Source: Acidobacteriota bacterium (GTDB taxonomy: Bacteria > Acidobacteriota > Thermoanaerobaculia > Gp7-AA8). Taken from it: a DNA stretch of 64,000 nucleotides. A program made the translations under genes and the position numbers. The stretch lies in assembly GCA_019244185.1 (NCBI GenBank), contig JAFATB010000025.1, forward strand, positions 96,001 through 160,000. The letters are read 5' to 3'. Shown here one piece after another: positions 34,644 to 62,674 of the stretch (positions are counted from its first letter, which is position 1; each line of letters starts with the position of its first letter). The notes under the pieces were generated by a model that saw only the letters and a program-made list of their open reading frames with translations, did not search any database and was not told the origin of the DNA.

Positions 34644-34665
34644 CCGGCACCGCCGGCTATTGCAC
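34635..34665. terminator. Hairpin joining convergent gene ends
   Basis: Perfect 14-bp stem GTGCAATAGCCGGC-ACC-GCCGGCTATTGCAC containing both TAG stops; no U tract. Confidence 0.6.
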
Positions 34666-37600: not shown

Positions 37601-37860
37601 GTCAGCGACAGCATGCCGTGAATGGCCGTGCGCGCGGAGAGCTCTTCGAGCACGAGCTCCTGCCCGTCGGGATCGGCGAACGTGATCAGCGGCGCGGCCG
37701 CGACAGGCGGCGCCGGCTTCGCCGCGAGTGCCACCGGCGCCGCCCGCTCCCCGCCCTTCGGCGCGCTCGCGGCACCGCGCGGTTGCACCGCGGAATGCGG
37801 CATGGTGGTACGAATCGAGAGAAGAAGCGCGGCAGCGGCGAGAACGAACTTCGTGTTCAT
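34657..37860 (-). CDS. Exported VIT + vWA + TPR + DUF2135-like protein
   Basis: FRNP..RRIEG.F..LP, DPALLE..GNRFSARIFPI (VIT); VDTSAS, GGTD, SD (MIDAS-like); TPR helices; LAWETDANDVDLHVVEP..DITQGLGPE. Confidence 0.88.
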   Translation of the reverse strand: MNTKFVLAAAALLLSIRTTMPHSAVQPRGAASAPKGGERAAPVALAAKPAPPVAAAPLITFADPDGQELVLEELSARTAIHGMLSLTELELRFRNPQARRIEGRFTCTLPPDAAISRFAKEINGALMEGEVVERLRANQVYEQFLHQMRDPALLEQDQGNRFSARIFPIDPNAPVRLLVSYTQLLPMRGGVRTYALPLRGLPKINKLTFRGFVTPVPGEETAGKLTTTTAEVTRFDERDWTPDRDLVMTWQATADAPRARILRAGDFYVAAFRPPVAQSKVAAPHAWLFYVDTSASSAESAPHRIRALEQLLGALPPNDSVRLVAFDQELAPLANGTAADLAPRVGDLLRNRLFLGGTDLSALFRDLARNASASRNIVVASDLVATLGETESHQLTSAIAALPRDARVHALILGAREEASLARTLTAGRGRIVRVPFTATLDTNAREAARLLQAPLGASFDASDPAAEWLYPTHFDDVADGDEILVLGKSRVGSEPQVSVASERANGAQRLDATFGPLLEREAYRAYLDYLAAREASEPSDAVRRALATEQVRISTEQRVVIPRTTMLVLESEWDYQRFGLDRRALAAILAIDAGGIGRIDHRDPLPPGRPMPVAKTTAASRVVPQSAVSVENAPPPNVQSESIAVTEGVPGGVEGGVEGGVEGGVVGGVAGGVVGGVIDARNEARDAVAVQAAAPVLQPAEAPRERAAVDVPHPVPEPPAPPPPPRVAERQRRDRDPGASRDGSDWTKDAAPPRSRIDELEAQLKNDPRNRELYNQLGETLAALREWPSLRRLALRWQPYDPENPQVYELLGMADEHDGNANEAARAYASLIELAPAKPELLQRAGLLLVRVGRASIAEAPLRRALELRPDRANGYRSLALLLWQDNRIEEAARLLESATTKEFPNWYGNVHRVLREELGYVYRAWQAKDPSRRDEIADRAREHDVDLARRDALRITLAWETDANDVDLHVVEPAGTEVYYSNPRSAAGLELYEDITQGLGPEVIRTSRVQHGVYHVGVRYFAAGPMGISRGIVIIQRGDDKVDIEPFRLAEGGGEIRYVAAVKVQ

Positions 37861-48500: not shown

Positions 48501-51500
48501 ACCGTCACCGTCACCGACGCGAACGGCTGCAGCAACAGCGCGTCGAAGACCGTGAACGTCACCGCGGCTCCGGTCGCGGCGATCGCCGGTCCGTCCGCGA
48601 CGTGCGCCGGCACGCCGGTCACGCTCGACGCGGGCGCGGGCTTCGCGTCGTATCTCTGGTCCAACGGCGCGACGACGCAGCAGATCACCGTCACGCCGTC
48701 GTCGACGACGAGCTACAGCGTCACCGTCGGCAACGGCACGTGCACGACGACGAGCGCGCCGCACACCGTCACCGTGTCGTCGACGCCGGTCGCGACAATC
48801 ACCGCGCCCGCCACCGTCTGCGCGGGCTCGACGGGCCACGTCGCCTCGGCACCGACGCAGGCCGGCGCGACGTACAACTGGATCGTGACCAACGGCACGC
48901 TCACCGCGGGCCAGGGCACGAACAGCATCACCTTCACCGCCGGCGCCACCGGCAACGTCGCCCTCAGTGTCACCGCGACGCAGGGCACGTGCACGAGCAA
49001 CGGCTCGACCAGCGTGCCGATCGTGCAGCCGCCGGTCGTGACCATCACCGGTCCGACGACCGCGTGCCCGAGCACGCAGTTCACCCTCGACGCCGGCAGC
49101 GGCTACGCGAGCTATCAGTGGTCGAACGGCGCGACGACGCCCACGATCACGCTCGCGCAGCTCGCGCCGTCCGCGGTTTACAGCGTTACCGTCACCACGG
49201 CCGCCGGCTGCTCCGCCACCGCGTCGCACACCGTGACGCTGAGCGCCGCGCCGAGCGCCGTCATCACGGCGCCGTCATCCGTCACCGCATCGTCCTCCGG
49301 CAACGCCGCCAGCGTGGCCGCGACCGCGGGCGCGACGTACGCGTGGTCGGTGACGAACGGCCATCTCGACGCCGGCCAGGGCACGAGTGCGATCGCGTTC
49401 ACCGCCGGCGCGTCGGGCAACACCGTGCTGCACGTCACCGTCACCGCCGGCGGCTGCTCGTCGAGCAGCACGAAGTCGGTCGTCAACAGCGGCGGCAACA
49501 ACAACAACGGCGCGGACCTCGCGATCACGAAGACCGCGCCCTCGTCCGTCAACACCGGCGCGACGCTCGTCTACACGATCAATGTCGTCAACCACGGACC
49601 GTCGGCGGCAGCCGGCGTTTCCATCACGGACGACCTCCCCGCCGGCACCACGCTCCTCTCGATCGACGACGGACCGTGGACGTGCGGCGCCGCCGGCAGC
49701 TCGATCTTCTGCAGCGGCAACGCCGCCGCGGGCGCGAGCAGCACGATTCTCCTCACCGTCACCGCGCCGCAGCAGCCGGGCACGATCGTGAACCATGTCG
49801 CCATCGACGCGGCCACGCCCGATCCCGACGCGACGAACAACAGCGCCAGCGCCGCGACGAACGTCGTCTCGCCGGCGCCGAACTGCACGAGCGTGCCGCC
49901 GTCGCTCGTCGCACCGGCGGACGGCGCGACGAACCTCACCTCGCCCGTCACGTTCACGTGGTCGCCGGTCAGCGGCGCCGCGGAGTACGAGCTGTGGCTC
50001 GACGACCAGCTCGCCGGCAGCACCACGTCGGCGACGCTGACGCACGTCGCACCGAGCGGGACGAATCACTGGTTCGTCGTCGCGCGCTTCACCAGCGGCT
50101 GCGACGCGCTCACCTCCGCGACGCGCACGTTCGACGTCACGCCGAATGCGAACTGCGACGCGCACACGAAAACGCAGATCACCGCGCCCGCGCTCAACTC
50201 GACGATCAACGCGCCGGTGACCTTCTCGTGGATGCCCGTGCCGCAGGCGATCGGCTATCGCGTCTGGGTCGACGTCGACGGCGGCGGCTTGCAGGACGTC
50301 GGCACGACCGACGGCGCGATCTTCCTCACTGCCAACGTGCCGCCGGGCGCCGTGGTCGCGTATGTCGACGCGCTCTTCAGCGGCTGCCCGCCGGTGCGCA
50401 GCGACGGCCTCGCGTTCAACGTCGCGCGTCCCGATCCGTGCGCCTCGCGCGCGACCGCCGCGCCCATCGCCCCCGCGAACAACGCTGTCGTCGCGAGCTC
50501 GTCGATCGACTTCCAGTGGACCGCCGCGAGCGGCGCGAGCGAGTACCGCGTGTGGGCCGAGGTCGACGACGCGCCCGCCGCGCTCCTCGGCACCACGTCC
50601 GACACGATTCTGCACGCCACGATCGCGCACGGCAGCATCCGCTGGTGGATCGAAGCGCTGTACGACGGCTGCGCGTCGACGACGTCCGCGACCTCACGCT
50701 TCACGGTGCCCGCCGCGCAGAGCTGCGGCACCGCCGTGCCGTCGCTCGTCTCTCCCGCGAACGGCGCGAACGTCGCCGCGGGCAACGTCACGTTCAGCTG
50801 GTCGTCCGTCGACGGCGCGCTCGGCTACGAGCTCTGGCTCTCGCACAACCACGGCACGCCGGCGCTCGCCGGCACCACCGCCACGACCTCGCTCGCGCAC
50901 GTCGTGCCGGCCGGCACGCTGACGTGGTTCGTGCGCGTGCTCGTCGACCGCTGCCCCGCGCGCGACTCGCAGCGCGCGACCTTCACCGCCACGCTCGCCG
51001 ACGCATGCGCCGCGCACAAGCGCGCCGTTCTCGTCGCGCCGCTTCGCAATGCGGAGGTCACCTCCCCCGCGGCGTTTGCATGGAACGGCGTCGCCGGCGC
51101 CACCGGCTACGAAGTCTTCGTCGTCCGCGGCCACGACGCGCCGCAGCGCATCGCCTCGACCACCGCCACGGCCGTCAACGGCATCGCGCTGACGCCGGGA
51201 CGTCTGCGCTGGTTCGTGCGCGCGAGCTTCGGCGGCACGTGCCCCGCGCTCGACTCCGACGACCGCCGCGTGACGATCGTCGCAACGCCGGCCGCGTGCG
51301 CGCCGCTGGAACCGCCTTCCATCACGGCACCCGGACAGATTTCCGCCAATCTGCCGTTCCTGCTGCAATGGACGCCGTCCGCCGGCGCCACCGCGTATCA
51401 ACTGCAGGTCGCCTCCAGCGCGAACTTCAGCGACGCGCAGCTCATCACCACCACCGGCACGCAGCAGCCGCTCGTGCGTCCGAACGACGGCCACGCGCCG

Positions 51501-53384
51501 GTCGCGCTGTACGCGCGCGTTCGCGCGATCGACACGCGCTGCCAGCCGTCGCCGACCGTCAGCGCGTACGGTTCCACCTCCGCGATCTTCATCCTGCCGA
51601 ACGCCGGCGAAGCGTCCGCGCCCTTCGGCCAGAGCGGCACGACGTCGTTCTCCATTCCGCTCGGCAGCGAGTTCGCCGGACAAGGCTTCACCGCGACGCC
51701 GAATCAGCCGTGGCTCACGGTTACTCCGGCCTCCGGCGTCGTGCCTCCGAGCGGCATCACGCTGCACGTCGTCGCCGACGCCGCCTCACTCCCGGTCGGC
51801 ACGAGCCTCGGCGGCGTGCGCGTCGCGCTCACCGGCGCGTCGTCGTCGAACGCCGCGCGTAAGGCGTCGAGCGTCTTCACCTCGACGATGACGATGAACC
51901 TCGTCACGCCGGTGTCGCCGGTACCGCACGACACGCCGCCGCCCGACGCGCTCATCATCCCCGCCGTCGCCCACGCGACCGGCATCAACTCGCAGTTCGA
52001 GTCCGACGTACGCGTGACGAACGCGTCGCCCGAGGTCGTGCAGTACCAGCTCACGTTCACGCCGAGCGGCGAGGACGGGATCAGCGACGGACGGCAGACC
52101 ACGTTCTCGATCGAGCCGGGGAACACCATCGCGCTCGACGACATCCTGCGCACGTGGTTCGGCACCGGCTCGGGCAGCATCGCCGGCGTGCTCGAAGTGC
52201 GCCCGCTCACGCAGACGGCGCCGTTCACGTCGAGCGCCGCGTTCTCCGGTCTTGCCGACCTCACCTCGTTCGCGTCGTCGCGCACGTTCAACGTCACGCC
52301 CAACGGCACGTTCGGCCAGTACATCCCGGCCATTCCGTTCGCGAACTTCGTCGGCGGCCTCGTGAACGGCAGCCGGTCCGTCATCTCGCTGCAGCAGGTC
52401 GCACAGTCCGACCGCTATCGCACGAACCTCGGCATCGTCGAAGGTTCCGGCGAGCCGGCGTCGCTCACGCTCACCGTCTTCGGCAGCAACGGCCAGCAGC
52501 TCGGCGCGTTCCCGATCGAGCTCGCCGGCGGCGAGCATCGCCAGCTCAACCTCGGCCAGCTCGGCGTGCCGTCGCTCGATGACGGTCGCGTCGAAGTCGC
52601 CGTCACCTCGCCCGGCGGCAAGATCACGGCGTACGCGTCGGTGCTCGACAACCAGACCAACGATCCGCTGCTCGTCTCGCCTGTCACGCTGAACGATCAG
52701 GGCGCGACGAAGTGGGTCATCCCCGGCGTCGCGGACCTCGACAACGGCACCGCGAACTGGCAGACCGACATGCGTCTCTTCAACGCCAGCACGACCGACG
52801 TCGACGCGTTGCTGTCGTTCTACTCGCAGAACGGCGGCACGCCGCGCACGCAGAGCATCACCATTCCCGCGGGCCAGGTACGCGAGCTCGATCGCACGCT
52901 GTCGAGCGTGTTCGGCGCGTCGAACGACGGCGGCGCGGTGCACGTCGAGACCGCGTCACCGGCGCGCCTCATCGCCACCGCGCGCACGTACAACCAGACC
53001 ACGCACGGCACGTACGGCCAGTTCATCTCCGGCGTCACGCCGGCGGAAGCGGCGGGCATCGAGAACCGTCCGCTGCAGCTGCTGCAGGTCGAGGAGAGCG
53101 ATCGTTTCCGCTCGAACATCGGCCTCGCCGAAGTCACCGGCAACCCCGTCACCATCGAGCTCTCCGTGCTGCCGCCGGACGCGAAAGTCACCGCGGTCAC
53201 GGAGCTCACGCTCGGCCCGAACGAGTTCCGTCAGCTGAACTCGCTCCTGCAGAGCGTGGGACTGGCGAACACGTACAACGCTCGCGTGACCGTGCGCGTG
53301 ATCGGCGGCACCGGCCGCGTCACCGCGTACGCGAGCGTGATCGACATGCAGACGAACGATCCGACCTACGTTCCGGCGCAGTGA
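39531..53384 (+). CDS. Giant (4617 aa) secreted surface protein: beta-solenoid repeats, parallel beta-helix modules, DUF11, Ig/PKD-like, Fn3-like, BACON-like and duplicated C-terminal module
   Basis: GAGGAG RBS, signal peptide, T/G/N/S-rich composition, uniform C/G third-position codon usage over 13.8 kb. Confidence 0.93.
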   Translation: MNRRWSVVVAVAALCLAPALYGTTNYQSNGAGGGDWLLPTTWSPLGIPGAGDTVTIVGTDTVIVTGIVSADSITVQGGQLELDLAGFLTANTVTVNAAFANAAVVLNGGALTTTGNIDIDGGSSTSAQLQFGALGGTLNDGGSLNFAGLLKQLTFSGAGTLNIAGDLGAGASFLAGGSTINFNGSGPQTINAYTFHDFSVSKATGTATLNGPITVNGSFAVTSGVLDDGGNQISLNAGSSSSITIGTNGVLKLGSAGSATSFPTPYASIFFSPGSTVVYHAGVAQSVNDALTYQNLWITTAGGSVTHTSAGPTLNVNGTLTILNNGANTATLSIGSSALDLNGNLAGDGTLSATSGAINISGDWAATTNLSAGTGSTVTYDGAFGSQNVGGVTYNNLTINKLLGTATLAGAATVNGNLNITAGSFDTGGQSLTVGGTLTNGSTLVAGASNVILGGNFTNNGALSGASATFKLNGTAAQTWTNNVGVTVGTLEMNNPVGATLSGAGGISVSTLLKLNGANVTVGGGGLFVDVLALISRTSGWIIGPLTLGMNPSPARTFPIGTAFAYLPVDADSGSAGQLTIEAVEGKHPSRTGNNVLDRYWRIESPSSVTPIDALTFHYNAGDVTTGTESQYGLAQYSAGIWTRKGDVVDEVNHNAGLTNVTGYFSDWIIGQPGSTGGASKLAITGVNGGSDPGVGAPFAVNIESQNDSGTPTSVSSGTVVALSVLAGAGPLGGTTSGTIFTNNSTLTINNVTYGTAENGVVLRATATSGDTLAFGDSTLFNVTAATTLTVTSLADSGAGTLRDAIATANGGGCTSPCTINFSVSGTINLTSALPTITASNLTIDGFTAPASLANTNAFGLAFNAFLGITLDGGSSTAAALDVQAIGAKIRGLVIRHFTSYGVRFSGTNTGSILSGCSIGTDGGIAAANGIGVYVDGANGVTIGGTAPADRNLISGNTNAGVSIINASSNITVEGNYIGTSATVTNVTPNTTGVTVGNGCTAISVGVAGTGNIISGNNGNGVELYASGTVVRANIIGGDGLGLGFLANGHGIYIAPGAGANTIGGASPADANTIVGNSGDGIRSEGTGDSIQNNRIGVAVDGTTAHGNSGSGIRLQGNASGNGIGWMMANTIAYNTGDGVSVIDTAIGNAIRTNAIYGNGGNAIDLGDDGPTANDATDSDTGPNGKQNYPSVSSAHLNGANLDVTFSLDSSGGTNANYFLVDVYKADGTGQAAAYVGSSTCLAGPTLATTYTFPAGSLTTGDKVVLGVSAYSDAGCATNSEGTSELSPSATVSGDVHWTGLTGAWELASNWLPAHVPTTNDNVYIDASGTYTVTLSSPASFNALHVGAASGTQTLGVNGSLSIGAPSSVDANGVFTLNSNLSGNGSLDVNSGGTLNWITGTIGGSAALNINSGATATLSSANTKVLSARLLTVATGGNLTWSGGTFFLQTGAAIANHGTFAIQSDATLADNGGAGAFDNYASVTKSVTTGVTTFGNVAFNHHSGTLDIQTGSINPANGTATAAISIGSSSELTIDSDTFTLGTGTSFSGTGALHVTGGTLTADGTFSVPNFKMDGGTLNGSGTISLAGGSWTTGTMSGSGTSTIPNAANISFSTANTKTLARALTIATGGTATWSGGTFFLQSGGTITNNGTFDAASDATMADNGGAGAFTNNNLFRKSAGSATATLLSGITLNNNGNIQVLTGTLNPATINNVGALSLTGELLVDSDTVTLSAGTTVSGSGTLKVTGGTLTIDGSPSIPLLRVDAGTVNGSGNFTSANLQWNSGTFSGSGTTTIPNLGVLTLGTGNTKVLARSLVISSGGVATVTGTGTLFLQSGGNITNNGLFGLEADSTIADNGAAGAFTNNATLRKSVTTGSTILGGITLNSTGTLDLQTGTLDLAGGTASGTLSLTSGAVFAVNSDSYTLSGTTVTGSGLVQLSGGALLINGSVTIPKFQQNGGTLDGTGTFTVGSLADWSTGTQQGSGTTSVANGAKLTLSSANTKVLMRALQTVAGGTLEVNGSGTMFLQSGGSIANNGALDLKADNTLTNGGAAGTIVNNGTITKSTTFGTTAISSIAFTNNGTLDLQSGIVNVAGAYTQSGTGTLHLWLGGTTPGTQYSQLVTASNPSLAGTLTVSLNGPYQPNGGDSFRALSIPGGTHAGDFNHPYGYPALALGRTFSDAFDTNGLLLTVSGNADLSIAKTAPSNVLAGNPINYTLTVSNAGPDAASGVTVTDLLPAGHSGITASGTGWNCNVVTLTVTCTATSMLATGAAPAITISATTPSVPSTILNTATVASANDTNAGNDSGSATVTLDAPQADVELTSQTPAGSVATSTPVSITFVLTNHGPQSATGVTLTATIPSSLAFNGATPASGSCGFAAGTLTCNVGTIAPLGSVNVVVNLTTGTTTGTQTPNGSVTAIETDPNPGNNSIPAPISVGGSSVTVTNVNDSGDGSLRQALLDAQSNVCASPCTIAFNIGSGVMIQPTSDLPALVTGTILDATTQPGYSGAPVLQLDLSLDPGNTAGLHVSGNNVTIRGLAITKATSGIEIDGNNAKIESNFIGIDLTDVTAANGIGMLIRGNNNTIGGGTAAKRNVISGNTTAGVQVESSATGNVVAGNFIGVDASGNLARANGTGVKFVAQASSNTIGGSAAEANVISGNTSYGVFIEGGATNATADANVVSYNSIGPSASGTIAFGASLAGVAVNDNAGATQIHHNTISGNGNGVELSGSGTTGAVVHSNLIGLASDGVTLMGNVQAGLVINGASDSVIGGTANGGNTISGNATNGINVVAGSGNEITGNTILAPSGLPIDLGADGATPNDIGDGDTGPNGRQNSPTLTGAFLDGGGNLHLSYNIDSSATSNGSILVEFFKASSGQPQTFLTRVCTAANAFGNGTSLLPSGIALGNTIVATATSYADNACNTIGDGTSEVSNAVVVTACTPPPVSISGPSASCAGNSVTLNAGSGYASYLWSTGAATQSITVSPTSTTTFTVTVTDANGCSNSASKTVNVTAAPVAAIAGPSATCAGTPVTLDAGAGFASYLWSNGATTQQITVTPSSTTSYSVTVGNGTCTTTSAPHTVTVSSTPVATITAPATVCAGSTGHVASAPTQAGATYNWIVTNGTLTAGQGTNSITFTAGATGNVALSVTATQGTCTSNGSTSVPIVQPPVVTITGPTTACPSTQFTLDAGSGYASYQWSNGATTPTITLAQLAPSAVYSVTVTTAAGCSATASHTVTLSAAPSAVITAPSSVTASSSGNAASVAATAGATYAWSVTNGHLDAGQGTSAIAFTAGASGNTVLHVTVTAGGCSSSSTKSVVNSGGNNNNGADLAITKTAPSSVNTGATLVYTINVVNHGPSAAAGVSITDDLPAGTTLLSIDDGPWTCGAAGSSIFCSGNAAAGASSTILLTVTAPQQPGTIVNHVAIDAATPDPDATNNSASAATNVVSPAPNCTSVPPSLVAPADGATNLTSPVTFTWSPVSGAAEYELWLDDQLAGSTTSATLTHVAPSGTNHWFVVARFTSGCDALTSATRTFDVTPNANCDAHTKTQITAPALNSTINAPVTFSWMPVPQAIGYRVWVDVDGGGLQDVGTTDGAIFLTANVPPGAVVAYVDALFSGCPPVRSDGLAFNVARPDPCASRATAAPIAPANNAVVASSSIDFQWTAASGASEYRVWAEVDDAPAALLGTTSDTILHATIAHGSIRWWIEALYDGCASTTSATSRFTVPAAQSCGTAVPSLVSPANGANVAAGNVTFSWSSVDGALGYELWLSHNHGTPALAGTTATTSLAHVVPAGTLTWFVRVLVDRCPARDSQRATFTATLADACAAHKRAVLVAPLRNAEVTSPAAFAWNGVAGATGYEVFVVRGHDAPQRIASTTATAVNGIALTPGRLRWFVRASFGGTCPALDSDDRRVTIVATPAACAPLEPPSITAPGQISANLPFLLQWTPSAGATAYQLQVASSANFSDAQLITTTGTQQPLVRPNDGHAPVALYARVRAIDTRCQPSPTVSAYGSTSAIFILPNAGEASAPFGQSGTTSFSIPLGSEFAGQGFTATPNQPWLTVTPASGVVPPSGITLHVVADAASLPVGTSLGGVRVALTGASSSNAARKASSVFTSTMTMNLVTPVSPVPHDTPPPDALIIPAVAHATGINSQFESDVRVTNASPEVVQYQLTFTPSGEDGISDGRQTTFSIEPGNTIALDDILRTWFGTGSGSIAGVLEVRPLTQTAPFTSSAAFSGLADLTSFASSRTFNVTPNGTFGQYIPAIPFANFVGGLVNGSRSVISLQQVAQSDRYRTNLGIVEGSGEPASLTLTVFGSNGQQLGAFPIELAGGEHRQLNLGQLGVPSLDDGRVEVAVTSPGGKITAYASVLDNQTNDPLLVSPVTLNDQGATKWVIPGVADLDNGTANWQTDMRLFNASTTDVDALLSFYSQNGGTPRTQSITIPAGQVRELDRTLSSVFGASNDGGAVHVETASPARLIATARTYNQTTHGTYGQFISGVTPAEAAGIENRPLQLLQVEESDRFRSNIGLAEVTGNPVTIELSVLPPDAKVTAVTELTLGPNEFRQLNSLLQSVGLANTYNARVTVRVIGGTGRVTAYASVIDMQTNDPTYVPAQ

Positions 53385-53411
53385 GGCGGGCGCGAACGCG
53401 TCCGCCTCACT
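53380..53411. terminator. Hairpin between convergent genes
   Basis: AGTGAGGCGGGCGC-GAAC-GCGTCCGCCTCACT containing both TGA stops. Confidence 0.55.
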
Positions 53412-53751
53412 CGCCGCGCGTGGCGCGGATGAGAGCTTCCATGTGCCCGAGGTACTTCTCGAGCGCGCGCTTGCCGGCGGCGGTGAGCGCGTACTCGGTC
53501 CTCGGCATGCGGCCTTCGAAGGACTTGCGGCAGATGAGATATCCGGCTTCCTCGAGCTTGCGGGCGTGGACGCTGACGTTGCCGTCGGTGGTCTTGAGAA
53601 TCGCCTTCAGCTCGTTGAACGAAAGCGTGGGATTGACGGCCAGCGCGCTCACGATCGCGAGACGCGTCTTCTCGTGGATGAGACGGTCGAAGTCGGGGAT
53701 GGCCGGCTCGACGACCGGCTGTGCTTTGCGCGCTGCTGCTGATTTAGCCAC
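53407..53751 (-). CDS. Winged-helix transcriptional regulator (MarR/ArsR-like)
   Basis: DRLIHEKTRLAIVSAL..FNELK..TDGNVSVHARKLEEAGY..PRTEYALT..G. Confidence 0.9.
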   Translation of the reverse strand: MAKSAAARKAQPVVEPAIPDFDRLIHEKTRLAIVSALAVNPTLSFNELKAILKTTDGNVSVHARKLEEAGYLICRKSFEGRMPRTEYALTAAGKRALEKYLGHMEALIRATRGE

Positions 53752-54328
53752 CGTAGCTCCTTGCGATGATCCAGCCGAACACGAGATGCAGTCCGCCGAA
53801 GCCCGCGCCGAGGAGCGCGTTGCCGGCGGACGGCGGAACGAAGCACGCGGCGATGCCGAGGAGCATGAAGCACACGCCCATCACCGGCACCACGCGGATC
53901 GAGTACGCGCCGCTGCCGACGAACGATGCGCCGTACAGCAGCAGCCACGCCGCGGCGAGCGGCGTGTAAACGTGCGCACTGCCGAGGACGTACGTCAGCG
54001 CCGCGCCCGCGACGATCGGCGCGAGGTAACTGCTGAAGAAGCGGCGCGCGGGCCCGCTGGTGAACGACACGTGCGCGCGGCGCGCCTTGCGGAGCATGGT
54101 CACGCCCGCGATCGCCGCCGCGACGACCGCTTCCGCGAGCCACGTCAGCAGCCAGCGGCGCGTGCCCGCGAACGGCTGCGCGACCACCGCGGCCGCGACG
54201 GCGGTCACGCCGACCGCGACGCCGCCCCACCCCGGAATCGACGTGAACGCGCTGGCGCGCTCCATCGCGTCGCGGATGTAACGGAGATTACTGATCGCAT
54301 GTTCATGCAGCGGCGCGGGTTCCTGCAT
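53744..54328 (-). CDS. Membrane protein paired with the wHTH regulator
   Basis: NLRYIRDAMER N-terminus, about 6 TM, FGGLHLVFG; TATCAT 7 nt before ATG 54328 (alternative start 54337). Confidence 0.8.
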   Translation of the reverse strand: MQEPAPLHEHAISNLRYIRDAMERASAFTSIPGWGGVAVGVTAVAAAVVAQPFAGTRRWLLTWLAEAVVAAAIAGVTMLRKARRAHVSFTSGPARRFFSSYLAPIVAGAALTYVLGSAHVYTPLAAAWLLLYGASFVGSGAYSIRVVPVMGVCFMLLGIAACFVPPSAGNALLGAGFGGLHLVFGWIIARSYGG

Positions 54329-54414
54329 CGGCCGCATGATAGCGCAAAGTTCTTTTCACCTCGGAGTTGTCTTACAATAACGCGCGGTTCCAATCCCGCA
54401 AGAGGAGTGTCTCG

Positions 54415-57400
54415 ATGCGCCGTTTGTCTGTCGTTCTGATCGTTCTGCTGCTCGCGGTCTCCGCGCTGCACGCCGCCACCATGCGCGTGCCCGCCGACGC
54501 CGAGCTCCTCGGCCGCGCCGACCTCGTCGTCGTCGCCACCGTCGACCACGTCGCCACGCGCGAGCTGCCCGACCACATGATCGTCACGGATCACCGCCTG
54601 CACGTCGTCGACGTGGTCAAAGGCGCCGCGCCCATGACGATCGTCGTGACCGAGGAAGGCGGCATGGCCAACGGCCACGGCGTCGCCATTCCCGGTTCCG
54701 CGAGCTACGCGAAAGGCACGCGCGTCCTAGCGTTCCTCCGCGACCGCGGCGACGGCACGTACTACACCGCGAACATGGCCCTCGGCGTCTTCCGCTTCGC
54801 CGGCGATCGCCTGACGCGCGAGACCGAAGGCATCGAGTCCGCCGACGGCACGGACGTGCCGCAGGGCGCGCTTCCCGCGCGCGAGTTCGTCGACTACGTG
54901 CGCGCGCTCGCGGACGGCCAGCCGGCCACGCGTCCGAACGTCATCGCGGAGAAAGCGTTCACGCCGGAGACGAATGCGGCGCTCAGCACGTACGTGCTGA
55001 AGGCGAGCGACAACACGCCGCTGCGCTGGAACTGCACGCCGCCGGCGCAGTGCAATGTCTGCACGGAACCGGTTAACCCGAGTCACACTCCCAGCATGTG
55101 CGGCTTTCGAATCAGCGGAACGCAAACTCCGACGAGCTCGCTGAATCAAATCGAAGCGTTGAACGACGCCATGAGCGCGTGGAACAACGACGCAAACTCG
55201 TACATCAATCTGACGCCGAACGGCACCGAGTCGAAGACCGGCCGCACAAATGACGACGTCAATGACATCGTTTTCGATTGGGACGGCTCGAACCCACATC
55301 CGAGCTGTGATGCTGCGATTGGCTGCGGCATCGTCTACTTCAACGGCTCTTCGAACGAGCACACGTTTCGCGGCACCACGTTCTACAACATCACTTCCTC
55401 AGACGTGCTCGTAAAGCACAGCGCGAGCCTCGGGCAAAACCTCTTTGAGGCCATTCTTGCGCACGAGCTTGGTCACAGCGTTGGCTTCACGCACGCGCCC
55501 ACCTCGGGCAACCTGATGAGTTCCTCGCTTCCTTCGAGTGCTATGGCTAAGCTCGGAAGTTGGGACAAGGAAGCGGCGGCCGAGATCTACGGCAACGGCC
55601 TCCCCTGCACGCCGGTCAGCGTGCAGTCGACCAGCGGCGGCGGCACCGTCACGAACGGCACGCCCGCGCACCTCTCCGTCACCGTCAACTCCGACAGCTC
55701 CGCGCCGATCACGTATCAGTGGTATGAAGGCACGAGCGGCAACACGTCCACGCCGGTCGGCACGAACAGCGCGAGCTACACGACCTCGCCGATCACCACC
55801 ACGCGCAACTTCTGGGTGCGCGTCACGAACTCCTGCGGCACCGCCGACAGCGCGACCATCACCGTCAACCCGAGCGTGTGCACCGGGCCGGTCATCAACG
55901 GCACGACCGGCGGCGGTTCGGTGACGTTCAACACGTCGGCGCATCTCGCCGTGCAGGTCGACGCGAGCAGCACCTCGCCGCTCAGCTATCAGTGGTACGA
56001 AGGCCCGACCGGCAACACGTCGAACCCCGTGGGCACGAACAGCTCGTACACGACGCCGCCGATCACGAGCTCGCACACGTACTGGGTGAAGGTCTCCAAC
56101 GCGTGCGGCAGCGCGAACAGCGCGAGCATCGAAGTGCACCCCGGCGCCTGCGACGCTCCGTCGATCACGACGCAGCCCGCGAGCCAGCACGTCGCGGCGG
56201 GCGGCACCGCCACGCTCCACGTCGCCGCGACCGGCACCGGCACGCTGACGTTCACGTGGTACACCGGCCCGGTCGGCAACACGTCGACGCCGGTCGGCAA
56301 CGGCCCCGACTTCACGACTCCCGCGCTGAACAGCACCGCCACGTACTGGGCGCGCGTCAGCAGCAACTGCGGCAGCGCCGACAGCGCGCTGGCCACGATC
56401 ACCGTCGGCACGCAGTGCGTTCCCGTCACGATCACCAGCCAGCCCGGCAGCGTGCAGACCACCGTCGGCGAGACCGTGCAGCTGCACGTCGTCGCGTCGG
56501 GCGATCCGACGATCACGTATCAGTGGTACGCCGGCGACACCGGCGACACGTCGCATCCGGTGCAGAGCGCGACGCCTCCGGGACCTCCCGTTCCCGCCGG
56601 CACGCTGATCATCGGACCCATCCCGACTGCAGGCACCACGAAGTACTGGGTGCGCGTGTCGAACGGCTGCGCCACCGTCGACAGCGTCACCGTCGCCGTC
56701 ACCGCGCTCTGCCCCGAGCTCACGAAGCCGAAGATCCACACCGCGCCGACCGTGCCGTACAACGTCAGCTACTTCGTCGGCTGGACGGGCGATCTCGTGA
56801 AGTCGCCGACGTTCGAGCTGCAGGAGTCGCGCACCGAGGACTTCTCGGGACCGGTCACGACGATGGTGGTGAACGCGCTGCAGAAGCAGCTCTCGCACGG
56901 TGAAGTCACGACCGACACGCGTTTCTACTATCGCGTGCGCGCGATCAACGGCTGCACGCAGCAGCCGAGCGACTACTCGAACACGACCTCGACCGCGGTC
57001 ACGCAGCCGCAGTCGCCGAACAGCACCGAGTTCCACATCAGCGTGCCCGCGACGACCTCGCAGTCGCTGACGCAGAACTACATCGTCCCCGGCTTCGGCA
57101 CGCACGCGACGGCCGGCGACACGTTCAGCATCACCACCGACGTGCCGTGGCTCTCGTTCTCCCCGGCAGCGGGCCCGCTTCCGTCGACCGGCGCGAACGT
57201 CGTCATCTCCGCCGACACCTCCGCGCTCGCCATCGGCACGACCACCGGCACCGTGCACGTGACGCGCACGCAGCCGTCGGGCGCGACGGCGCACGGCGCG
57301 GTGACGAATGCGACGAGCGTCTCGTCGACCGTGCCGTTCTCGATGAGCCTCGTCACGCCGATCACGCCGCAGCCGCGCGACACGAACCCGCCGGCTGGCA

Positions 57401-58830
57401 CGATGGTCATCCCCGCCACCGCCCACGCCGACGGCATCGGTACGCGCTTCCAGTCCGACCTGCGCATCGTCAACGCGCACGATGAGACGGTGACGTACGA
57501 GCTGAACTTCACCCCGTCCGGCAACGACGGCACGCAGACCGGCAAGTCGACGACGCTCGACATCGGCCCGAACGACTCGATCTCGCTCGACGACGCCGTG
57601 CGCGCGTGGTACGGCGCGGGCGTGGCCGGCGAGCCGGGACTCGGCACCATCGAGATCCGCCCCATCGCCACCATCAGCGGCGGCGCGCCGAACCCGCTGC
57701 TCACGTACGCATCGAGCCGCACCTACAGCGTCACGCCGCAGGGCACGCTCGGCCAGTACATTCCGGCCATTCCGCTGACCGCGTTCATCCCCAACTTCAG
57801 CAACGGCATCGTGCCGCAGCTGAGCCTCCAGCAGGTCGCGCAGAGCGCCACGTATCGCACGAACCTCGGCTTCGTCGAAGGCGCCGGCGCGCCCGCGGAG
57901 CTCGTCGCACGCGCGCTCGACGCGAACAACCACGTGCTCGCCGAGACGCCGCTGCACCTCGACCCGTACCAGCACATGCCGACCTCGTTCAGCAACGTCT
58001 TCCCCGGCCTGTCGCTCGACGACGGCCGCGTCGAAGTCGAAGTGACGTCGTCGACCGGCAAGGTCACCGCGTACGCGTCGGTGCTCGACAACCAGACCAA
58101 CGATCCGCTGCTCGTCTTCCCCGTGCAGACCGGCGCCGTCTCGCAGTCGCGTTACGTCGTGCCGGGCGTGGCCGAGCTCAACGCGGGCTCGAACTTCCAC
58201 ACCGACATGCGCATCTACAACTCCGCGTCGACGCCGGTGTCGATCACGCTCAACTATCACCCGCAGGCCGGCGACAGCACGCCGCCGCCCGCGCCCGTGC
58301 AGCTCGACCTCAATCCGCACGAGATCCGCGCCATCGACAGCGTCCTGCCGACGCTGTGGCAGCTCAACGCCACCGGCGGCTCGGTCACGCTCGACGCGCC
58401 GAACGACACGCCGCTCGTCGTCACCGCGCGCACGTTCAGCCGCGACGCGCAGGGCGGCACGTACGGCCAGTTCATCCCCGGCGTCACCGCGCTCGACGCG
58501 GTCGGCAACGGCGAGCGCTCACTCGAGATCCTGCAGCTCGAGGAGTCGCCGAGCTACCGCGCGAACCTCGGCCTCGTGGAAGTCACCGGCGCGCCCGTCG
58601 ACATCGAGATCCTCGGCTACACCGGCACGAAGCTCACCTCCGCGACGCAGGCGCATCTCGACGGCAACGAGTTCATTCAGTTCGGCCACATCATGTCGCA
58701 GCTCGGCTTCGACAACGTGTATGGCGGCCGCGTCACCGTGCGCGTCCTCGGCGGCTCCGGCCGCATCGCCGCGTACGGCTCCGTCGTCGACAACCGCACG
58801 CTCGATCCGACCTACGTTCCCGCCCAATGA
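54415..58830 (+). CDS. Secreted metzincin (M10/matrixin-like) zinc protease with prodomain, 4 Ig-like domains, Fn3-like, BACON-like and duplicated C-terminal module
   Basis: GAGGAG RBS, signal peptide, HELGHSVGFTH zinc motif plus Met-turn NLMS; four (Y/F)xWYxG..YW(V/A)xV..C repeats. Confidence 0.9.
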   Translation: MRRLSVVLIVLLLAVSALHAATMRVPADAELLGRADLVVVATVDHVATRELPDHMIVTDHRLHVVDVVKGAAPMTIVVTEEGGMANGHGVAIPGSASYAKGTRVLAFLRDRGDGTYYTANMALGVFRFAGDRLTRETEGIESADGTDVPQGALPAREFVDYVRALADGQPATRPNVIAEKAFTPETNAALSTYVLKASDNTPLRWNCTPPAQCNVCTEPVNPSHTPSMCGFRISGTQTPTSSLNQIEALNDAMSAWNNDANSYINLTPNGTESKTGRTNDDVNDIVFDWDGSNPHPSCDAAIGCGIVYFNGSSNEHTFRGTTFYNITSSDVLVKHSASLGQNLFEAILAHELGHSVGFTHAPTSGNLMSSSLPSSAMAKLGSWDKEAAAEIYGNGLPCTPVSVQSTSGGGTVTNGTPAHLSVTVNSDSSAPITYQWYEGTSGNTSTPVGTNSASYTTSPITTTRNFWVRVTNSCGTADSATITVNPSVCTGPVINGTTGGGSVTFNTSAHLAVQVDASSTSPLSYQWYEGPTGNTSNPVGTNSSYTTPPITSSHTYWVKVSNACGSANSASIEVHPGACDAPSITTQPASQHVAAGGTATLHVAATGTGTLTFTWYTGPVGNTSTPVGNGPDFTTPALNSTATYWARVSSNCGSADSALATITVGTQCVPVTITSQPGSVQTTVGETVQLHVVASGDPTITYQWYAGDTGDTSHPVQSATPPGPPVPAGTLIIGPIPTAGTTKYWVRVSNGCATVDSVTVAVTALCPELTKPKIHTAPTVPYNVSYFVGWTGDLVKSPTFELQESRTEDFSGPVTTMVVNALQKQLSHGEVTTDTRFYYRVRAINGCTQQPSDYSNTTSTAVTQPQSPNSTEFHISVPATTSQSLTQNYIVPGFGTHATAGDTFSITTDVPWLSFSPAAGPLPSTGANVVISADTSALAIGTTTGTVHVTRTQPSGATAHGAVTNATSVSSTVPFSMSLVTPITPQPRDTNPPAGTMVIPATAHADGIGTRFQSDLRIVNAHDETVTYELNFTPSGNDGTQTGKSTTLDIGPNDSISLDDAVRAWYGAGVAGEPGLGTIEIRPIATISGGAPNPLLTYASSRTYSVTPQGTLGQYIPAIPLTAFIPNFSNGIVPQLSLQQVAQSATYRTNLGFVEGAGAPAELVARALDANNHVLAETPLHLDPYQHMPTSFSNVFPGLSLDDGRVEVEVTSSTGKVTAYASVLDNQTNDPLLVFPVQTGAVSQSRYVVPGVAELNAGSNFHTDMRIYNSASTPVSITLNYHPQAGDSTPPPAPVQLDLNPHEIRAIDSVLPTLWQLNATGGSVTLDAPNDTPLVVTARTFSRDAQGGTYGQFIPGVTALDAVGNGERSLEILQLEESPSYRANLGLVEVTGAPVDIEILGYTGTKLTSATQAHLDGNEFIQFGHIMSQLGFDNVYGGRVTVRVLGGSGRIAAYGSVVDNRTLDPTYVPAQ

Positions 58831-58868: not shown

Positions 58869-60908
58869 ATGCACAAACGCGCCGCGGTTCTCGCGCTGAC
58901 GTTCTTCGCGCTGCCGCTGTTCGGGCAGCGCGTTTTGTTTGAGATCGGTTCCCGCGATCTGCAGCCCGCCCGCGGCACGCACGTCACCGCCGCGCGCGCA
59001 TCGCAGGGCGCACTCGTGCTCTGGTCCGCCGACGACGGCTTGCGCGCGCGGCGACTCGATGACGCCGGCGCCGCGCTCGACGACGCACCGCTCGCACTCG
59101 ACGACGCGTACGGCATCGTGGGCTCGGACGGCCGCGACTACTACGTCGTCTCCACGCCGGCATTCAGCAACGCGATGCACCTCACGCGCATCGATGCGAT
59201 CACCGGCGCGGCCACGCACATCGACGCCGCGCTGCCCGCCGGAACGCCGGCCGCACTCGTCTGGAACGGCAGCGCGTTTCTCTTCGCTTATGCCGATTAC
59301 GACGGCACCTATGCGGTGCTCGTCGACGCGCTCGGCCACGTCACGAGCGGCGTGCGGCAACTCGGCTACGGCGTGCCGCAAGTCGTGACGAACCACGGCC
59401 ACTGGCTCCTCGCATTCAACGAAACCATCCATCAGGAACCCGTGCCGCTCGCGGGCGCCGCTCACAAAAGCGCCGCCTCACAACGCGACGGAAAACTGAC
59501 GCTGCTCCATCCGGACGACTTTCCGCCCGTCGGCACCTCCGCCGCGCCGCACTGGCGGAGCTACGGCGATGGGGCCGAGGTGCGCGCCGCGGTGGACGAG
59601 GACGGCTACGCCGCGGCGTACGCGCGCGACGGCGCGATCGTCGTCGAGCACCTCGACGCGGACGCGGAGCCGCGCGGCCCGAACGAAACGATCGCAGACG
59701 CCGCGAAACCGGTCGCGCTGGCGCAACTCGCCTCCGCGTTCCTCGTGCTGACGGACGCCGGCGACGCGCTCGCCTTCCCGCGCACGGGAGCGCCGTTCCG
59801 CGTCGCGACGCCGGCGTGGCTCGGCGGCACGGACGCGCTGCTGCTCGCGTTGGAGAACGGCGTCCTCGCCGCCGCGAGCGACGGCGATCGCGTCGCGCAC
59901 GTGGCCACGCGCGACCCGCTCGGCTGGCAGCACGAGCAGATCCTCTCCCGCGCCCGTGCGACGCACTCCGCGCCGCGGCTCATCGCCGCCGCCGGCAGCG
60001 TCGTCGCGGTGTGGTCGGAAACGAACGCCGTCGAGACCTCTCTCTGGATCGCGCCGCTCGGCGCCGACGGCGATCCGCTGACGCACGGCACGCGACTCGC
60101 GGCCGCGCGCTTTCTCGGCGCGCCCGCCGTCACGTTCGACGGCGAGAACCTCTTCGTCGTCTGGACGCACAACGACCCGACTTCCTACATCGCCACCGCG
60201 TACGGCCTTCACGTGTCGTCCGCCGGCGTGCCGCTCGACGCGCCGCTCGTCCTCGCGAGCGACCTGCGCGCGTTCACGCCCGCCGCGGTGACCTGGAACG
60301 GCCGCGAATACGTGGTCGCGTTCGACGAGCCGGTCTATCGCTTCGCGCGCGACGGCCGCAGGAACTCGGTCGAGCATCTCACGCGTTTCGCCAGCGTCGC
60401 GCTCGCGTCGCGCAACGGCCGCACGCTCGGCGTCGGCTCGCGCGAGCAGGCGTGGGAAGGCGCCAGCCCGTTCTTCGTCGTCTCGTTCGCCGACCACCAG
60501 GGCTGCTGCTTCGAAAGCGAATACGTCGCGAGCGACACATTCGGCTTCGCGACCGTCGCCGCATCGCCGAACCTCACCGTCTCCGTGCTCCCCGACACGA
60601 CCGGCGCAAACTGGATCGCCCGCGACTTCGACACGCACCGCGAGCTCGCCCGCGTCCCCGCCGCCCTCCACCCGCCACACCTCGCGGCGACCGCATCGAA
60701 TGCGTTCCTCGTCGCCGGCGCCGGCACGCTCACGCGCTTCACCGACATGGGAGTGCAACGCGTCATCCCCATCCCGGATGCGAACGGCGAGATCGCCGTC
60801 GCCGAAGCGCCCGACGGCGCCGCGCTCGTGTTGTATGACGGTGGATCGGGAATGGTGGTGGAGCGCATCGAGACACGGACGCCGCGGCGGCCCAGCGTGC
60901 GGCACTGA
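58869..60908 (+). CDS. Secreted hypothetical beta-rich protein with C-terminal RRPSVRH
   Basis: Signal peptide; repeated WNG/FDG..(Y/F)xVxW blade-like motifs. Confidence 0.8.
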   Translation: MHKRAAVLALTFFALPLFGQRVLFEIGSRDLQPARGTHVTAARASQGALVLWSADDGLRARRLDDAGAALDDAPLALDDAYGIVGSDGRDYYVVSTPAFSNAMHLTRIDAITGAATHIDAALPAGTPAALVWNGSAFLFAYADYDGTYAVLVDALGHVTSGVRQLGYGVPQVVTNHGHWLLAFNETIHQEPVPLAGAAHKSAASQRDGKLTLLHPDDFPPVGTSAAPHWRSYGDGAEVRAAVDEDGYAAAYARDGAIVVEHLDADAEPRGPNETIADAAKPVALAQLASAFLVLTDAGDALAFPRTGAPFRVATPAWLGGTDALLLALENGVLAAASDGDRVAHVATRDPLGWQHEQILSRARATHSAPRLIAAAGSVVAVWSETNAVETSLWIAPLGADGDPLTHGTRLAAARFLGAPAVTFDGENLFVVWTHNDPTSYIATAYGLHVSSAGVPLDAPLVLASDLRAFTPAAVTWNGREYVVAFDEPVYRFARDGRRNSVEHLTRFASVALASRNGRTLGVGSREQAWEGASPFFVVSFADHQGCCFESEYVASDTFGFATVAASPNLTVSVLPDTTGANWIARDFDTHRELARVPAALHPPHLAATASNAFLVAGAGTLTRFTDMGVQRVIPIPDANGEIAVAEAPDGAALVLYDGGSGMVVERIETRTPRRPSVRH

Positions 60909-60947: not shown

Positions 60948-61652
60948 TCAAGCTGTCGCCGCCCCCGTCCCTTTCCCCGCCGCCGCCCGATCCACGAGCC
61001 ACCACGTCTCGAGCTCGTCGCCCGCCGTCGCGAGCGCGACGGGATGCGGTGCACCCTCGCGCACCTCGCGAACGATCTTCGCCTTCGATGCACCCGCGGC
61101 GAGCACGAGGCGCAGCTTCGCGGCGCGCAGCACCGGCTTCGTGAGCGTCACGCGCCACTGCGTGAGCTTCTCGACGTACACCTCACTGGCGATGCGGTCC
61201 TCCACGTCGAGCACCGGCGTGCCCGGAAACAGCGACGCCGTATGGCCGTCGTCGCCGCAGCCGAGGAGCACGACGTCGAGCGTGTCCAGTCCGAGCTCCC
61301 GCCATTCGCGCTCGAACTCACGCGCGGTCGCGGCGGGATCGCCGAGCTCCGTGCGGAAGCGCAGAAAGCGGTGCGACGGCGGCAGGCCGCGCGCGAAGAG
61401 CGTCCGCTCGATCATCGCCGCGTTCGACTGCGGGTCGCTCATCGGCACGTAGCGCTCGTCCACGACCACCCACGTGATCGCGTGTTGCGCCAATTCGTCA
61501 GCATGTTGACTACTAAGGAAATCGTAGAGCGGACGCGGGGTCGAGCCGCCGGAGAGCGCGATCGAGCGCGCTCCCGACTCCACGCGCTGCAGGATCGTCC
61601 GCGCCGCGGCGCGCGTCAGCTCCTCCGCCGAGTCGAAGACGCGCAGATTCAT
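60948..61652 (-). CDS. pgl: 6-phosphogluconolactonase
   Basis: ALSGGSTP, DERYVP..SN, LLGCGDDGHTASLFP, RVTLT. Confidence 0.96.
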   Translation of the reverse strand: MNLRVFDSAEELTRAAARTILQRVESGARSIALSGGSTPRPLYDFLSSQHADELAQHAITWVVVDERYVPMSDPQSNAAMIERTLFARGLPPSHRFLRFRTELGDPAATAREFEREWRELGLDTLDVVLLGCGDDGHTASLFPGTPVLDVEDRIASEVYVEKLTQWRVTLTKPVLRAAKLRLVLAAGASKAKIVREVREGAPHPVALATAGDELETWWLVDRAAAGKGTGAATA

Positions 61653-62674
61653 GCGGCGTGGCTGGCGGCGACGCGGGCGGCCACGTCGCGCGCGATGCGC
61701 AGCGCCTCGAGGTACACGCGGTCGCTCTCCGGCTGCTTGAGCAGGCGCACGATGAGATCGGACAGCCCGCGTCCGCGTTTGCGCGTGATGCAGTCGAGCT
61801 CCGTCTCCGCGTGCGCGGCGCTGCACTTCACGACGCCGCGTCCGCGGTCGCCGCGGATGAGTGCCGTGGTGTTGTCGCGGAAGCGGATGTCCACCGCGCT
61901 GATCCCTTCTTCCTCACTCTGCGTCGCCAGCTCGAACGGGATCTCGTAGCCGAGCTGCGCCATGAGCCACGAGACGTACAGCACCGCCTCCGAGGTCGCG
62001 CCGAGCGTGCCGCCCGCGGTCGTCACGCGCACGTGTGCGATCGACTGCAGCCGCGCGCGCATGGCCGGCGGATCGAACACCGCGGCGCTCGCCGCGCGCC
62101 ACTCCTCGACGCGCGCCCAGTTCACATCGGCCGGCGCGGTCGTGGTCTGCTCCGCGATGCGCGCCACCAGCGCGAAATCCGCCGCGCTGTCGAACTGCGA
62201 CGAGTCGACGATCAGCCGGTCCGCCGGCTCGAGCAGCGACTCGACGTACGCGTGGTCGTTCGGCAGATCGCCGAGCCACCACACCGCCACCGGCATGTCC
62301 GGCAGCAGCAGCGCGTTGACCAGCGGCGCGACGTGATCGACGCGCTCGCCGCCGGCGACGATCGACACCTCTTCCGAGCACACCTGCCGCGAGTCGCCGA
62401 GAAGGTGGCAGTTCGCGGAGATCCAGGCCTGCATGTCGTGCGGCGCGTTCGGATCGGCGCGGACGACGATCGTCCGCTGCGGCACGGACGCGCTCGCGCT
62501 CGCCAGCACTTCCGTCGCGTGCGCGTGCTGTTTCGAGTTCCACGTGTGCGCGACGACGTTCCACAGCGCCGCGCGCGTCACCGCGTCGTCGTGCGCCTGC
62601 TTCTCATTCCGCCAGAGCTCCGCGAGCTGCTTCTCGATGCTGCCCGCGTGCACGCGAACGTCTGCGTCGATCAT
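61649..62674 (-). CDS. opcA: Glucose-6-phosphate dehydrogenase assembly protein OpcA
   Basis: LLLPDMPVAVWW, DRLIVDS, DVNWAR; lies between zwf and pgl. Confidence 0.92.
   Translation of the reverse strand: MIDADVRVHAGSIEKQLAELWRNEKQAHDDAVTRAALWNVVAHTWNSKQHAHATEVLASASASVPQRTIVVRADPNAPHDMQAWISANCHLLGDSRQVCSEEVSIVAGGERVDHVAPLVNALLLPDMPVAVWWLGDLPNDHAYVESLLEPADRLIVDSSQFDSAADFALVARIAEQTTTAPADVNWARVEEWRAASAAVFDPPAMRARLQSIAHVRVTTAGGTLGATSEAVLYVSWLMAQLGYEIPFELATQSEEEGISAVDIRFRDNTTALIRGDRGRGVVKCSAAHAETELDCITRKRGRGLSDLIVRLLKQPESDRVYLEALRIARDVAARVAASHAA

Follow-up and report, generated by a model that had tools for sequence, protein, structure and literature searches.

A C-terminal module shared by exported proteins of Thermoanaerobaculia is predicted to be a single-chain tetrad of ASRAH-fold domains

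Thermoanaerobaculia are abundant, almost entirely uncultured soil bacteria. Here we describe a C-terminal module carried by two exported proteins with unrelated N-terminal parts in a member of this class (Acidobacteriota; lineage Gp7-AA8), which, like its relatives, is a soil metagenome-assembled genome (MAG) by record title. Both genes lie on the plus strand of the 64,000-nt stretch of DNA that was analysed (the window: assembly GCA_019244185.1, contig JAFATB010000025.1, positions 96,001 to 160,000; whole-window G+C 66-72%). The first, an open reading frame (ORF) at 39531-53384, encodes a giant protein of 4617 aa: a signal-peptide-like N-terminus is followed by a long repeat region, three DUF11 domains (Pfam, 7.7e-50 over three stretches), Fn3/GH85_C-like repeats (GH85_C, 2.7e-5) and the shared C-terminal part, which we refer to as the chassis. 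The second (54415-58830; 1471 aa from ATG) encodes a signal peptide, a matrixin-like catalytic domain, four Ig_7 domains and, again, the chassis. Its reading frame is open from 54367 (1487 aa), and the identical database record (P0003, 1471 aa) starts at the Met corresponding to 54415, which is likely the true start. The protein contains the zinc-binding motif HELGHSVGFTH (HExxHxxGxxH; 55462-55494, plus strand) and scores 23.7 bits against Peptidase_M10 (PF00413), the cut-off being 24; PF00413 is on record for many of its orthologues, two of which are named matrixin family by NCBI. On the strength of the zinc site and the profile evidence it can be classed as a putative metzincin of the matrixin (M10) type.

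The two proteins end alike. The last 677 residues of the giant protein and the last 676 of the metzincin are 42% identical (286/687, E 3e-154), which bears out the common C-terminal module proposed in the initial annotation of this DNA; the motifs quoted there are all present in both proteins, namely IPxxA..(S/T)DxRxxN, SRT(F/Y)..GTxGQ(F/Y)I, (Y/F)RxN(L/I)G, AY(A/G)SVxDxxTxDP and the terminal DPTYVPAQ. The module itself, of about 475 aa, spans 51951-53381 in the giant protein and 57403-58827 in the metzincin, and the likeness begins upstream of it, in Fn3-like and BACON-like parts (from 51396 and 56812, respectively). In the giant protein this upstream portion of the chassis (51396-51950, plus strand) consists of the Fn3-like part, the BACON-like part (PWLTVTPASG at 51708) and a Pro-rich LVTP linker (51900-51950); its counterpart in the metzincin (56812-57402, plus strand) has the same order, with PWLSFSPAAG at 57145 and the LVTP linker at 57349. 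The designation BACON-like, which also goes back to the initial annotation, stands in part: the giant protein itself matches weakly and below the cut-offs (BACON E 0.021, BACON_2 E 0.032) and the metzincin has no BACON match, while two paralogues exceed the BACON_2 cut-off at the aligned position (1.8e-7 and 7.9e-6).

A 49-nt run that had been noticed as identical between the two genes is real, and amounts to 16 identical codons within 17 identical residues of the modules. Overall nucleotide identity is 63%. Because the same codon is used at 166/224 identical residues (74%) and an identical run of 16 codons is reached in 0.9% of simulations, we regard the run as a minor feature that mostly reflects the best-conserved peptide together with strong codon bias. 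Gene conversion is at most hinted at, and we rejected the idea of a mobile or recombined element, since peptide conservation and codon bias account for most of the identity.

The last ~477 residues of the giant protein are a tandem of two ~235-aa units, A and B, that are 33% identical (78/240, E 8e-29), in agreement with the tandem structure already noted from the sequence. Each unit is duplicated in its turn, since its first and second halves are homologous to each other (hhalign probability 95%, E 4.1e-8, 73 columns), and the module thus resolves into four ~115-aa beta-sandwiches in the order A1-A2-B1-B2, the odd and the even domains being of two types. In the giant protein the putative domains occupy, on the plus strand, 51951-52304 (A1, strand-2 motif FESDVRVTN), 52305-52688 (connector GTFGQYIP plus A2, YRTNLG at 52416), 52716-53030 (B1) and 53031-53381 (connector plus B2, FRSNIG at 53106, ending in DPTYVPAQ). 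In the metzincin, by alignment and unit profile, unit A (A1 + A2) lies at 57403-58128 and unit B (B1 + B2), which also ends in DPTYVPAQ, at 58156-58827, both on the plus strand.

An AlphaFold2 model of the 477-aa module, based on a 45-sequence alignment, is all-beta, with a predicted local distance difference test score (pLDDT) of 91.0 and a predicted template modelling score (pTM) of 0.90. When the model was compared with 48161 PDB chains (VIA-align), the top match was Thermotoga TM1070 (1nc7_A; Z 13.2, root-mean-square deviation (rmsd) 3.0, 113/116 residues), aligned to model residues 248-365, that is, domain B1; the second match was the sensory rhodopsin transducer of Anabaena (ASRT, 2ii7_A; Z 9.5), and the next row scored 7.3. 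The last quarter, B2, folded alone (pLDDT 89.5), again retrieved 1nc7_A first (Z 12.7, rmsd 2.2, 104/116 aligned), followed by 2ii7_A (8.8) and a next row at 7.2. B1 and B2 are assigned to the fold by these structure matches, and A1 and A2 by homology. A search of PDB sequences with the unit profile yielded no match at E<=10. We consider it very probable, on the basis of the models, that the module is a single-chain tetrad of ASRAH-fold domains, the fold shared by TM1070 and ASRT.

The ASRAH superfamily was defined from ASRT and TM1070 by De Souza, Iyer and Aravind (2009; PMC2739507), in whose account both proteins are tetramers. The authors predicted that sugars bind in a cleft that strand 2 lines, with the signature SHEshChhN, in which H25 and C29 contact a diol, and a near-invariant Asn that closes the strand (PMC2739507). 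Families other than ASRT are described there as always forming dyads or tetrads: Chloroflexi have tetrads joined to secreted muramoyl-alanine amidases, and dyads are found in a surface lipoprotein of actinobacteria, for which a link to a glycosyltransferase and an inactive zincin-like peptidase is given (PMC2739507). The acidobacterial module agrees with most of this description. The modelled B1 and B2 are eight-stranded beta-sandwiches superposable on TM1070 over the whole domain, and the number of domains per module, judged from sequence, is four. The family strands read W-x-(S/T)-D-x-R-x-x-N in the first half-unit and (Y/F)-R-x-N-x-G-x-x-E in the second. Across the 30 units of the genome, divergent ones included, the residues of RxNxG are conserved at 97% (R), 100% (N) and 90% (G), and the Asn closing strand 2 of the first half-unit at 87%; this Asn is near-invariant in two alignments (labelled A2 and A3) and, with the register taken from aligned ranges, probably corresponds to the nearly invariant Asn of the superfamily. 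The second half-unit mostly has Glu at the closing position. The Trp expected at the start of strand 1 is missing: strand 1 reads (L/V)IP(A/G)VA, and it is strand 2 that starts with a conserved W/F/Y. By aligned ranges, the conserved R/N/G and the closing Asn seem to fall on the strand that bears the ligand-contacting residues of TM1070.

The initial annotation had stated that the module cannot be assigned to a named family, and this no longer holds, given the ASRAH-fold tetrad and the match to Pfam DUF5719 (PF18986) that the giant protein's module gives when scanned alone (34.6 bits, E 1.5e-8, cut-off 26.2). The alignment takes in positions 68-218 of the 319-position profile and residues 160-314 of the module: it begins at A2 with its connector and straddles domains A2 and B1, and a full-length match to the profile is not reached. 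The metzincin's module scores 16.3 bits, and DUF5719 matches at E<=1 in 18/45 modules. A six-frame search of the genome with PF18986 produced four matches, all within unit-bearing ORFs, the best of them (31.7 bits) at window positions 52428-52901. On sequence grounds the module is best described as a distant relative of DUF5719, marginally over its cut-off. The match is gone when the giant protein's 1127-aa C-terminal piece or the whole 4617-aa protein is scanned with Pfam, which probably explains why the long relatives lack a DUF5719 label and go by 'hypothetical' names: PF18986 is on none of the long relatives listed and on 13 of 94 short database relatives, one of which is called 'DUF5719 family protein'. 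Since the match is lost on the full-length protein, annotators will need domain-wise scanning or a dedicated model. The nearest named clusters in the protein Atlas are DUF5719 and ASRT. NCBIfam has no match on the module of either protein, and PF07100 (ASRT) is absent from the families matching the 45 modules at E<=1 (25 of 27 families listed). Pfam scans of six ORFs at divergent unit loci of the genome (for the C3 locus, an ORF on the strand opposite the unit-bearing one) returned nothing at E<=1.

The two proteins of the window belong to a large set. In the genome (G000; 5.3 Mb, 26 contigs, 98.9% complete) a six-frame hmmsearch with the unit profile identified 22 unit-bearing ORFs at E<=5e-14, nine with two units and 13 with one, plus three weak ones. 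A crude pattern detects a signal-peptide-like N-terminus in 17 of the 22, and of the five that it misses at least one has a clear signal peptide. According to Pfam, the payloads of the larger ORFs include DUF11 adhesin-like regions, PKD arrays, Ig_7 arrays, a second matrixin with PKD and an M36 fungalysin with a P-domain; the proposal of one chassis on unrelated payloads is thus borne out within a single genome (M10, M36, DUF11, PKD and Ig). He_PIG, VCBS and IPT domains are added in relatives elsewhere. Among the payloads listed there is no Pfam glycoside-hydrolase (GH) catalytic domain, the sole GH-named match being the non-catalytic GH85_C. In 16/22 genome ORFs no more than 17 residues follow the last unit, and in 6/22 it lies farther from the end. 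The order is inverse at G000:C4:685076-687859 (minus strand), where a signal peptide and a unit dyad at residues 53-482 precede PKD-like repeats that run to the C-terminus.

Searched against 1.84 billion representative proteins, the unit profile matches 8825 clusters at E<=1e-3, 6692 at E<=1e-10 and 2515 at E<=1e-30, so the module is far from being confined to two recent paralogues. The best 150 of the 8825 have two matching stretches in 148 cases and three in two, always at the extreme C-terminus of proteins of 512-5870 aa, and in 85 of these 150 the tail is identical to DPTYVPAQ. All 376 proteins fetched have exactly two units, and the last unit lies within two residues of the C-terminus in 374, a constancy of position that the initial annotation had suggested checking; the shortest of the 376 resemble fragments and have no signal peptide. 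The records bear such names as 'hypothetical protein', 'matrixin family metalloprotease' and 'DUF11/Ig-like domain-containing'.

As for taxonomic range, the labels of the 63 related loci in species-representative genomes read Thermoanaerobaculia or Acidobacteriota, the exceptions being two Holophagae and one Betaproteobacteria MAG contig. In a phylum sample of 201 genomes 26 match: 12/17 of the same class (G000 included) and 14/184 outside it, where matches are weak (best E 2.5e-9 to 5.9e-4). This tally includes two unpublished genomes, the class-level positive G024 and the weak out-of-class G049; without them it is 24/199. The description of the module as lineage-specific is accordingly apt for the subfamily, which is enriched in one class, and too narrow for the superfamily, which is wider. 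A giant-type module in a related MAG, at L082:3001-4421 (CAVTGG010000010.1), has two in-frame stops and is either a pseudogene or an assembly error. In a family-level relative, a 199-aa frame containing unit positions 35-227 alone (G070:C21:192141-192698) lies ~300 bp downstream of a complete module gene and looks like a leftover duplication fragment.

Several known systems offer points of comparison. TM1070 (1nc7) and ASRT (2ii7) share with the module domains the ~115-aa eight-stranded beta-sandwich (104-113 of 116 residues covered), a conserved Asn or Glu closing strand 2, polar residues on the same strand and an arrangement of domains in fours. They differ in that the ASRT profile PF07100 has no match here and neither SHEshChhN nor the first-strand Trp is kept; moreover, TM1070 and ASRT are cytosolic, whereas the module is exported, has its four domains in one chain and is appended to large payloads. 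DUF5719, a family of unknown function whose Atlas clusters are mostly from Actinomycetota, is connected to the module by the curated cut-off that the giant protein's module exceeds, and some database fragments already bear its name; unlike DUF5719, however, the module forms the C-terminal tetrad of multidomain proteins that have no lipobox, and the profile match is partial. It may be that DUF5719 is the actinobacterial two-ASRAH surface lipoprotein of the 2009 study. The Chloroflexi amidase tetrads, as described in PMC2739507, are likewise extracellular, with four ASRAH domains in one enzyme-fused chain and predicted envelope-glycan binding; compared by description only, the acidobacterial proteins differ in payloads, in phylum and in their ABAB pattern of two domain types. 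The fusion to zincin proteases echoes the zincin-like neighbour that the same source describes for the actinobacterial ASRAH family (PMC2739507). Finally, the C-terminal domain (CTD) of the type IX secretion system (T9SS; Por_Secre_tail) and the SLH repeats follow the same logic of one terminal beta-rich module on many unrelated exoproteins. We draw this as an analogy only: sequence matches are lacking, and size, fold family and internal architecture differ. Por_Secre_tail (PF18962) has no match at E<=1 on the giant protein's module, its 1127-aa C-terminal piece or the whole metzincin; six-frame genome searches gave no match for Por_Secre_tail or SprA_N, with the control genomes silent too in both cases.

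What might such a module do? In the arrangement we propose, the chassis would run from the Fn3-like part through the BACON-like part and the Pro-rich linker to the ASRAH tetrad, and the tetrad would pack into one compact body mimicking the TM1070 tetramer (pTM 0.90). Ligand clefts would be lined by the strand-2 motifs W-x-S/T-D-x-R-x-x-N and Y/F-R-x-N-x-G and are predicted to bind carbohydrate. The tetrad may in this way non-covalently tether Sec-exported proteases, adhesin-like proteins and repeat proteins to polysaccharide, most likely the envelope or matrix glycan of the producer. We put forward as a tentative functional prediction that the module, by binding glycan of the producer's own envelope or matrix, keeps exoproteins tethered there. 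We favour the producer's own glycan because the payloads are proteases, adhesin-like giants and Ig/PKD arrays and not glycan-degrading enzymes, because ~22 exoproteins share the module, because the proteins scanned whole show no other anchor (NCBIfam, Pfam), and because both extracellular ASRAH precedents, as described in PMC2739507, are envelope-associated.

A number of results weigh against this prediction. The evidence gathered does not tell binding to the producer's own glycan from binding to an external one. We found no experimental ligand for any ASRAH or DUF5719 protein in the literature searched, and sugar binding is a prediction of 2009. The H and C ligand residues of the ASRT family occur in neither half of the unit, and the best PF07100 match in the whole genome (E 0.83, 11.7 bits) is located elsewhere. 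Foldseek, run with the module model against the PDB, returned generic multi-Ig matches alone (TM <=0.14), and the mapping of the cleft and the compact pseudo-tetramer are drawn from aligned ranges and pTM. Nor do the 10 genes scanned next to seven stand-alone unit genes (six loci) point repeatedly to glycan synthesis or the envelope.

The same fold and motif evidence would fit a tetrad that binds an external glycan (plant, fungal or microbial polysaccharide, or prey walls) and, acting like a carbohydrate-binding module (CBM), brings proteases and adhesins to their substrate. This is a somewhat unlikely explanation in our estimate. In its favour, there are stand-alone exported proteins with a single unit, both the organism and its relatives are MAGs from soil, and the quarter-domains have CBMs, collagen-binding domains and protease P-domains among their structure matches at Z 5.5-7, although this strength lies in a range that is common for the alignment tool. 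The payloads listed, however, have no Pfam GH catalytic domain, with which the CBM logic is usual, and a giant adhesin-like protein needs one cell-proximal end, for which the scans revealed no other anchor. A structural or self-assembling element that binds no ligand, be it part of a lattice resembling a surface layer (S-layer), an oligomerisation platform or a folding and stability domain, is the explanation to which we give least credence, and we think it very improbable. It could draw on the tetrameric state reported for TM1070 and ASRT (PMC2739507), on the apparently rigid packing of the four domains (pTM 0.90) and on the presence of enzyme-stabilising protease C-terminal jelly-rolls among the weak structure matches (3afg, 9ues). 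Yet a single chain already supplies the four domains of a tetramer, the module is carried by ~22 different proteins with no dominant single carrier gene of the S-layer type, and the best-conserved residues, R, N and G, are polar and share one strand, a pattern more usual in a binding site than in a packing core.

The initial annotation had suggested S-layer integration or secretion targeting, and we found nothing pointing to either. The latter would make the module a C-terminal secretion or sorting ticket for outer-membrane machinery, perhaps cleaved or covalently attached, as is the T9SS CTD in Bacteroidota. The diverse Sec-exported payloads, the conserved LVTP/Pro-rich linker preceding the module, the last unit at most two residues from the C-terminus in 374/376 proteins and the tail shared by 85/150 representatives would all suit such a role. 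Against it, ~475 aa is five times the size of known sorting domains, and 6/22 genome ORFs carry units away from the C-terminus, including an N-terminal dyad before PKD-like repeats. Because related units are N-terminal, internal and stand-alone too, a pure C-terminal sorting signal is argued against; and because unit A ends internally in the same DP..V motif, the DPTYVPAQ-type tail appears to be a feature of the fold. The fold, furthermore, belongs to a ligand-binding superfamily, there is no conserved machinery gene next to the module genes, and two secretins that could export folded proteins are present in the genome. We judge a sorting ticket improbable. Marginally more credible, and still quite unlikely, is a reading in which the tetrad is the handle of a lineage-wide surface display: each cell would sort ~20 different exoproteins to a single dedicated receptor on its envelope, either a specific glycan or outer-membrane machinery, and fix them there, with the free DPTYVPAQ C-terminus being part of the recognition. 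If this were true, the handle would be an acidobacterial counterpart of the T9SS CTD or of SLH anchoring.

Shared terminal binding modules on exoproteins are well known, and SLH and cell-wall-binding repeats act in this way in other bacteria. The principle is not new, and the superfamily, too, is known, its sugar binding being a prediction. Within the literature searched, where we found no publication on the acidobacterial module, what is new is an acidobacterial subfamily with an ABAB tetrad, the fixed Fn3/BACON/linker chassis, the scale, and the fusion to zincin proteases. About 22 exported proteins of the genome carry the module, including its largest protein and several proteases, and thousands of relatives are nearly all 'hypothetical'. 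Identification as an ASRAH tetrad would give these proteins a testable function, glycan tethering, and would provide the first large collection of extracellular ASRAH proteins for testing the sugar-binding prediction of 2009.

The immediate surroundings of the two genes were examined for partners. The ~1-kb gap between them contains a minus-strand gene (53747-54337) for a small multi-pass membrane protein of 197 aa, with a G+C content at third codon positions of 0.89, that is divergent from the metzincin start and 78 bp away from it; neither Pfam nor NCBIfam assigns it to a family. A promoter and terminator scan of the gap gave nothing above shuffles. The membrane protein gene is found at the same place in 19/63 related loci (60-74% identity), and the protein is single-copy in 29/61 class genomes (the unpublished G024 among them). 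It is present in G119 and G131, which have no module match, and was not found in the module-rich G143, G165 and G095. We rejected it as a general partner of the module for lack of co-variation with the module family: since it does not track the family, it is a local synteny partner only. The order of giant protein and protease also recurs. A homologue of the N-terminal 584 residues of the metzincin (a matrixin) follows a giant-type module in 10/63 related loci (L029, L030, L031, L034, L038, L045, L046, L048, L053 and L070; 37-49% identity), a count that leaves out an eleventh match, L089, which is the metzincin's own orthologue. The matrixin might process the giant protein or act together with it.

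Neither the neighbours of the two window genes nor those of the seven stand-alone unit genes include a recurring partner. Flanking genes at the stand-alone loci include those for FtsK, an amine oxidase, a SpoIIE phosphatase, a porin with a TPR protein, Lnt, an E2 acyltransferase, a uridine kinase and PilZ. One stand-alone locus, G000:C17:70639-72927 (minus strand; L026 and L100), holds two adjacent paralogues of ~353 and 363 aa, each with an Fn3-like N-terminal part and one unit, and the pair is flanked by genes for apolipoprotein N-acyltransferase and a 2-oxoacid dehydrogenase E2. Farther out in the window, two long ORFs without a family lie downstream of the metzincin on the plus strand (58869-60908 and 61044-61949); the latter is probably spurious, since it overlaps the real minus-strand genes for 6-phosphogluconolactonase (pgl) and OpcA (60948-62674). 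Upstream of the giant protein are a BlaR1-type M56 peptidase with a C-terminal winged-helix hint (31468-33612, plus strand) and a VIT + TPR protein of 1067 aa (34657-37860, minus strand).

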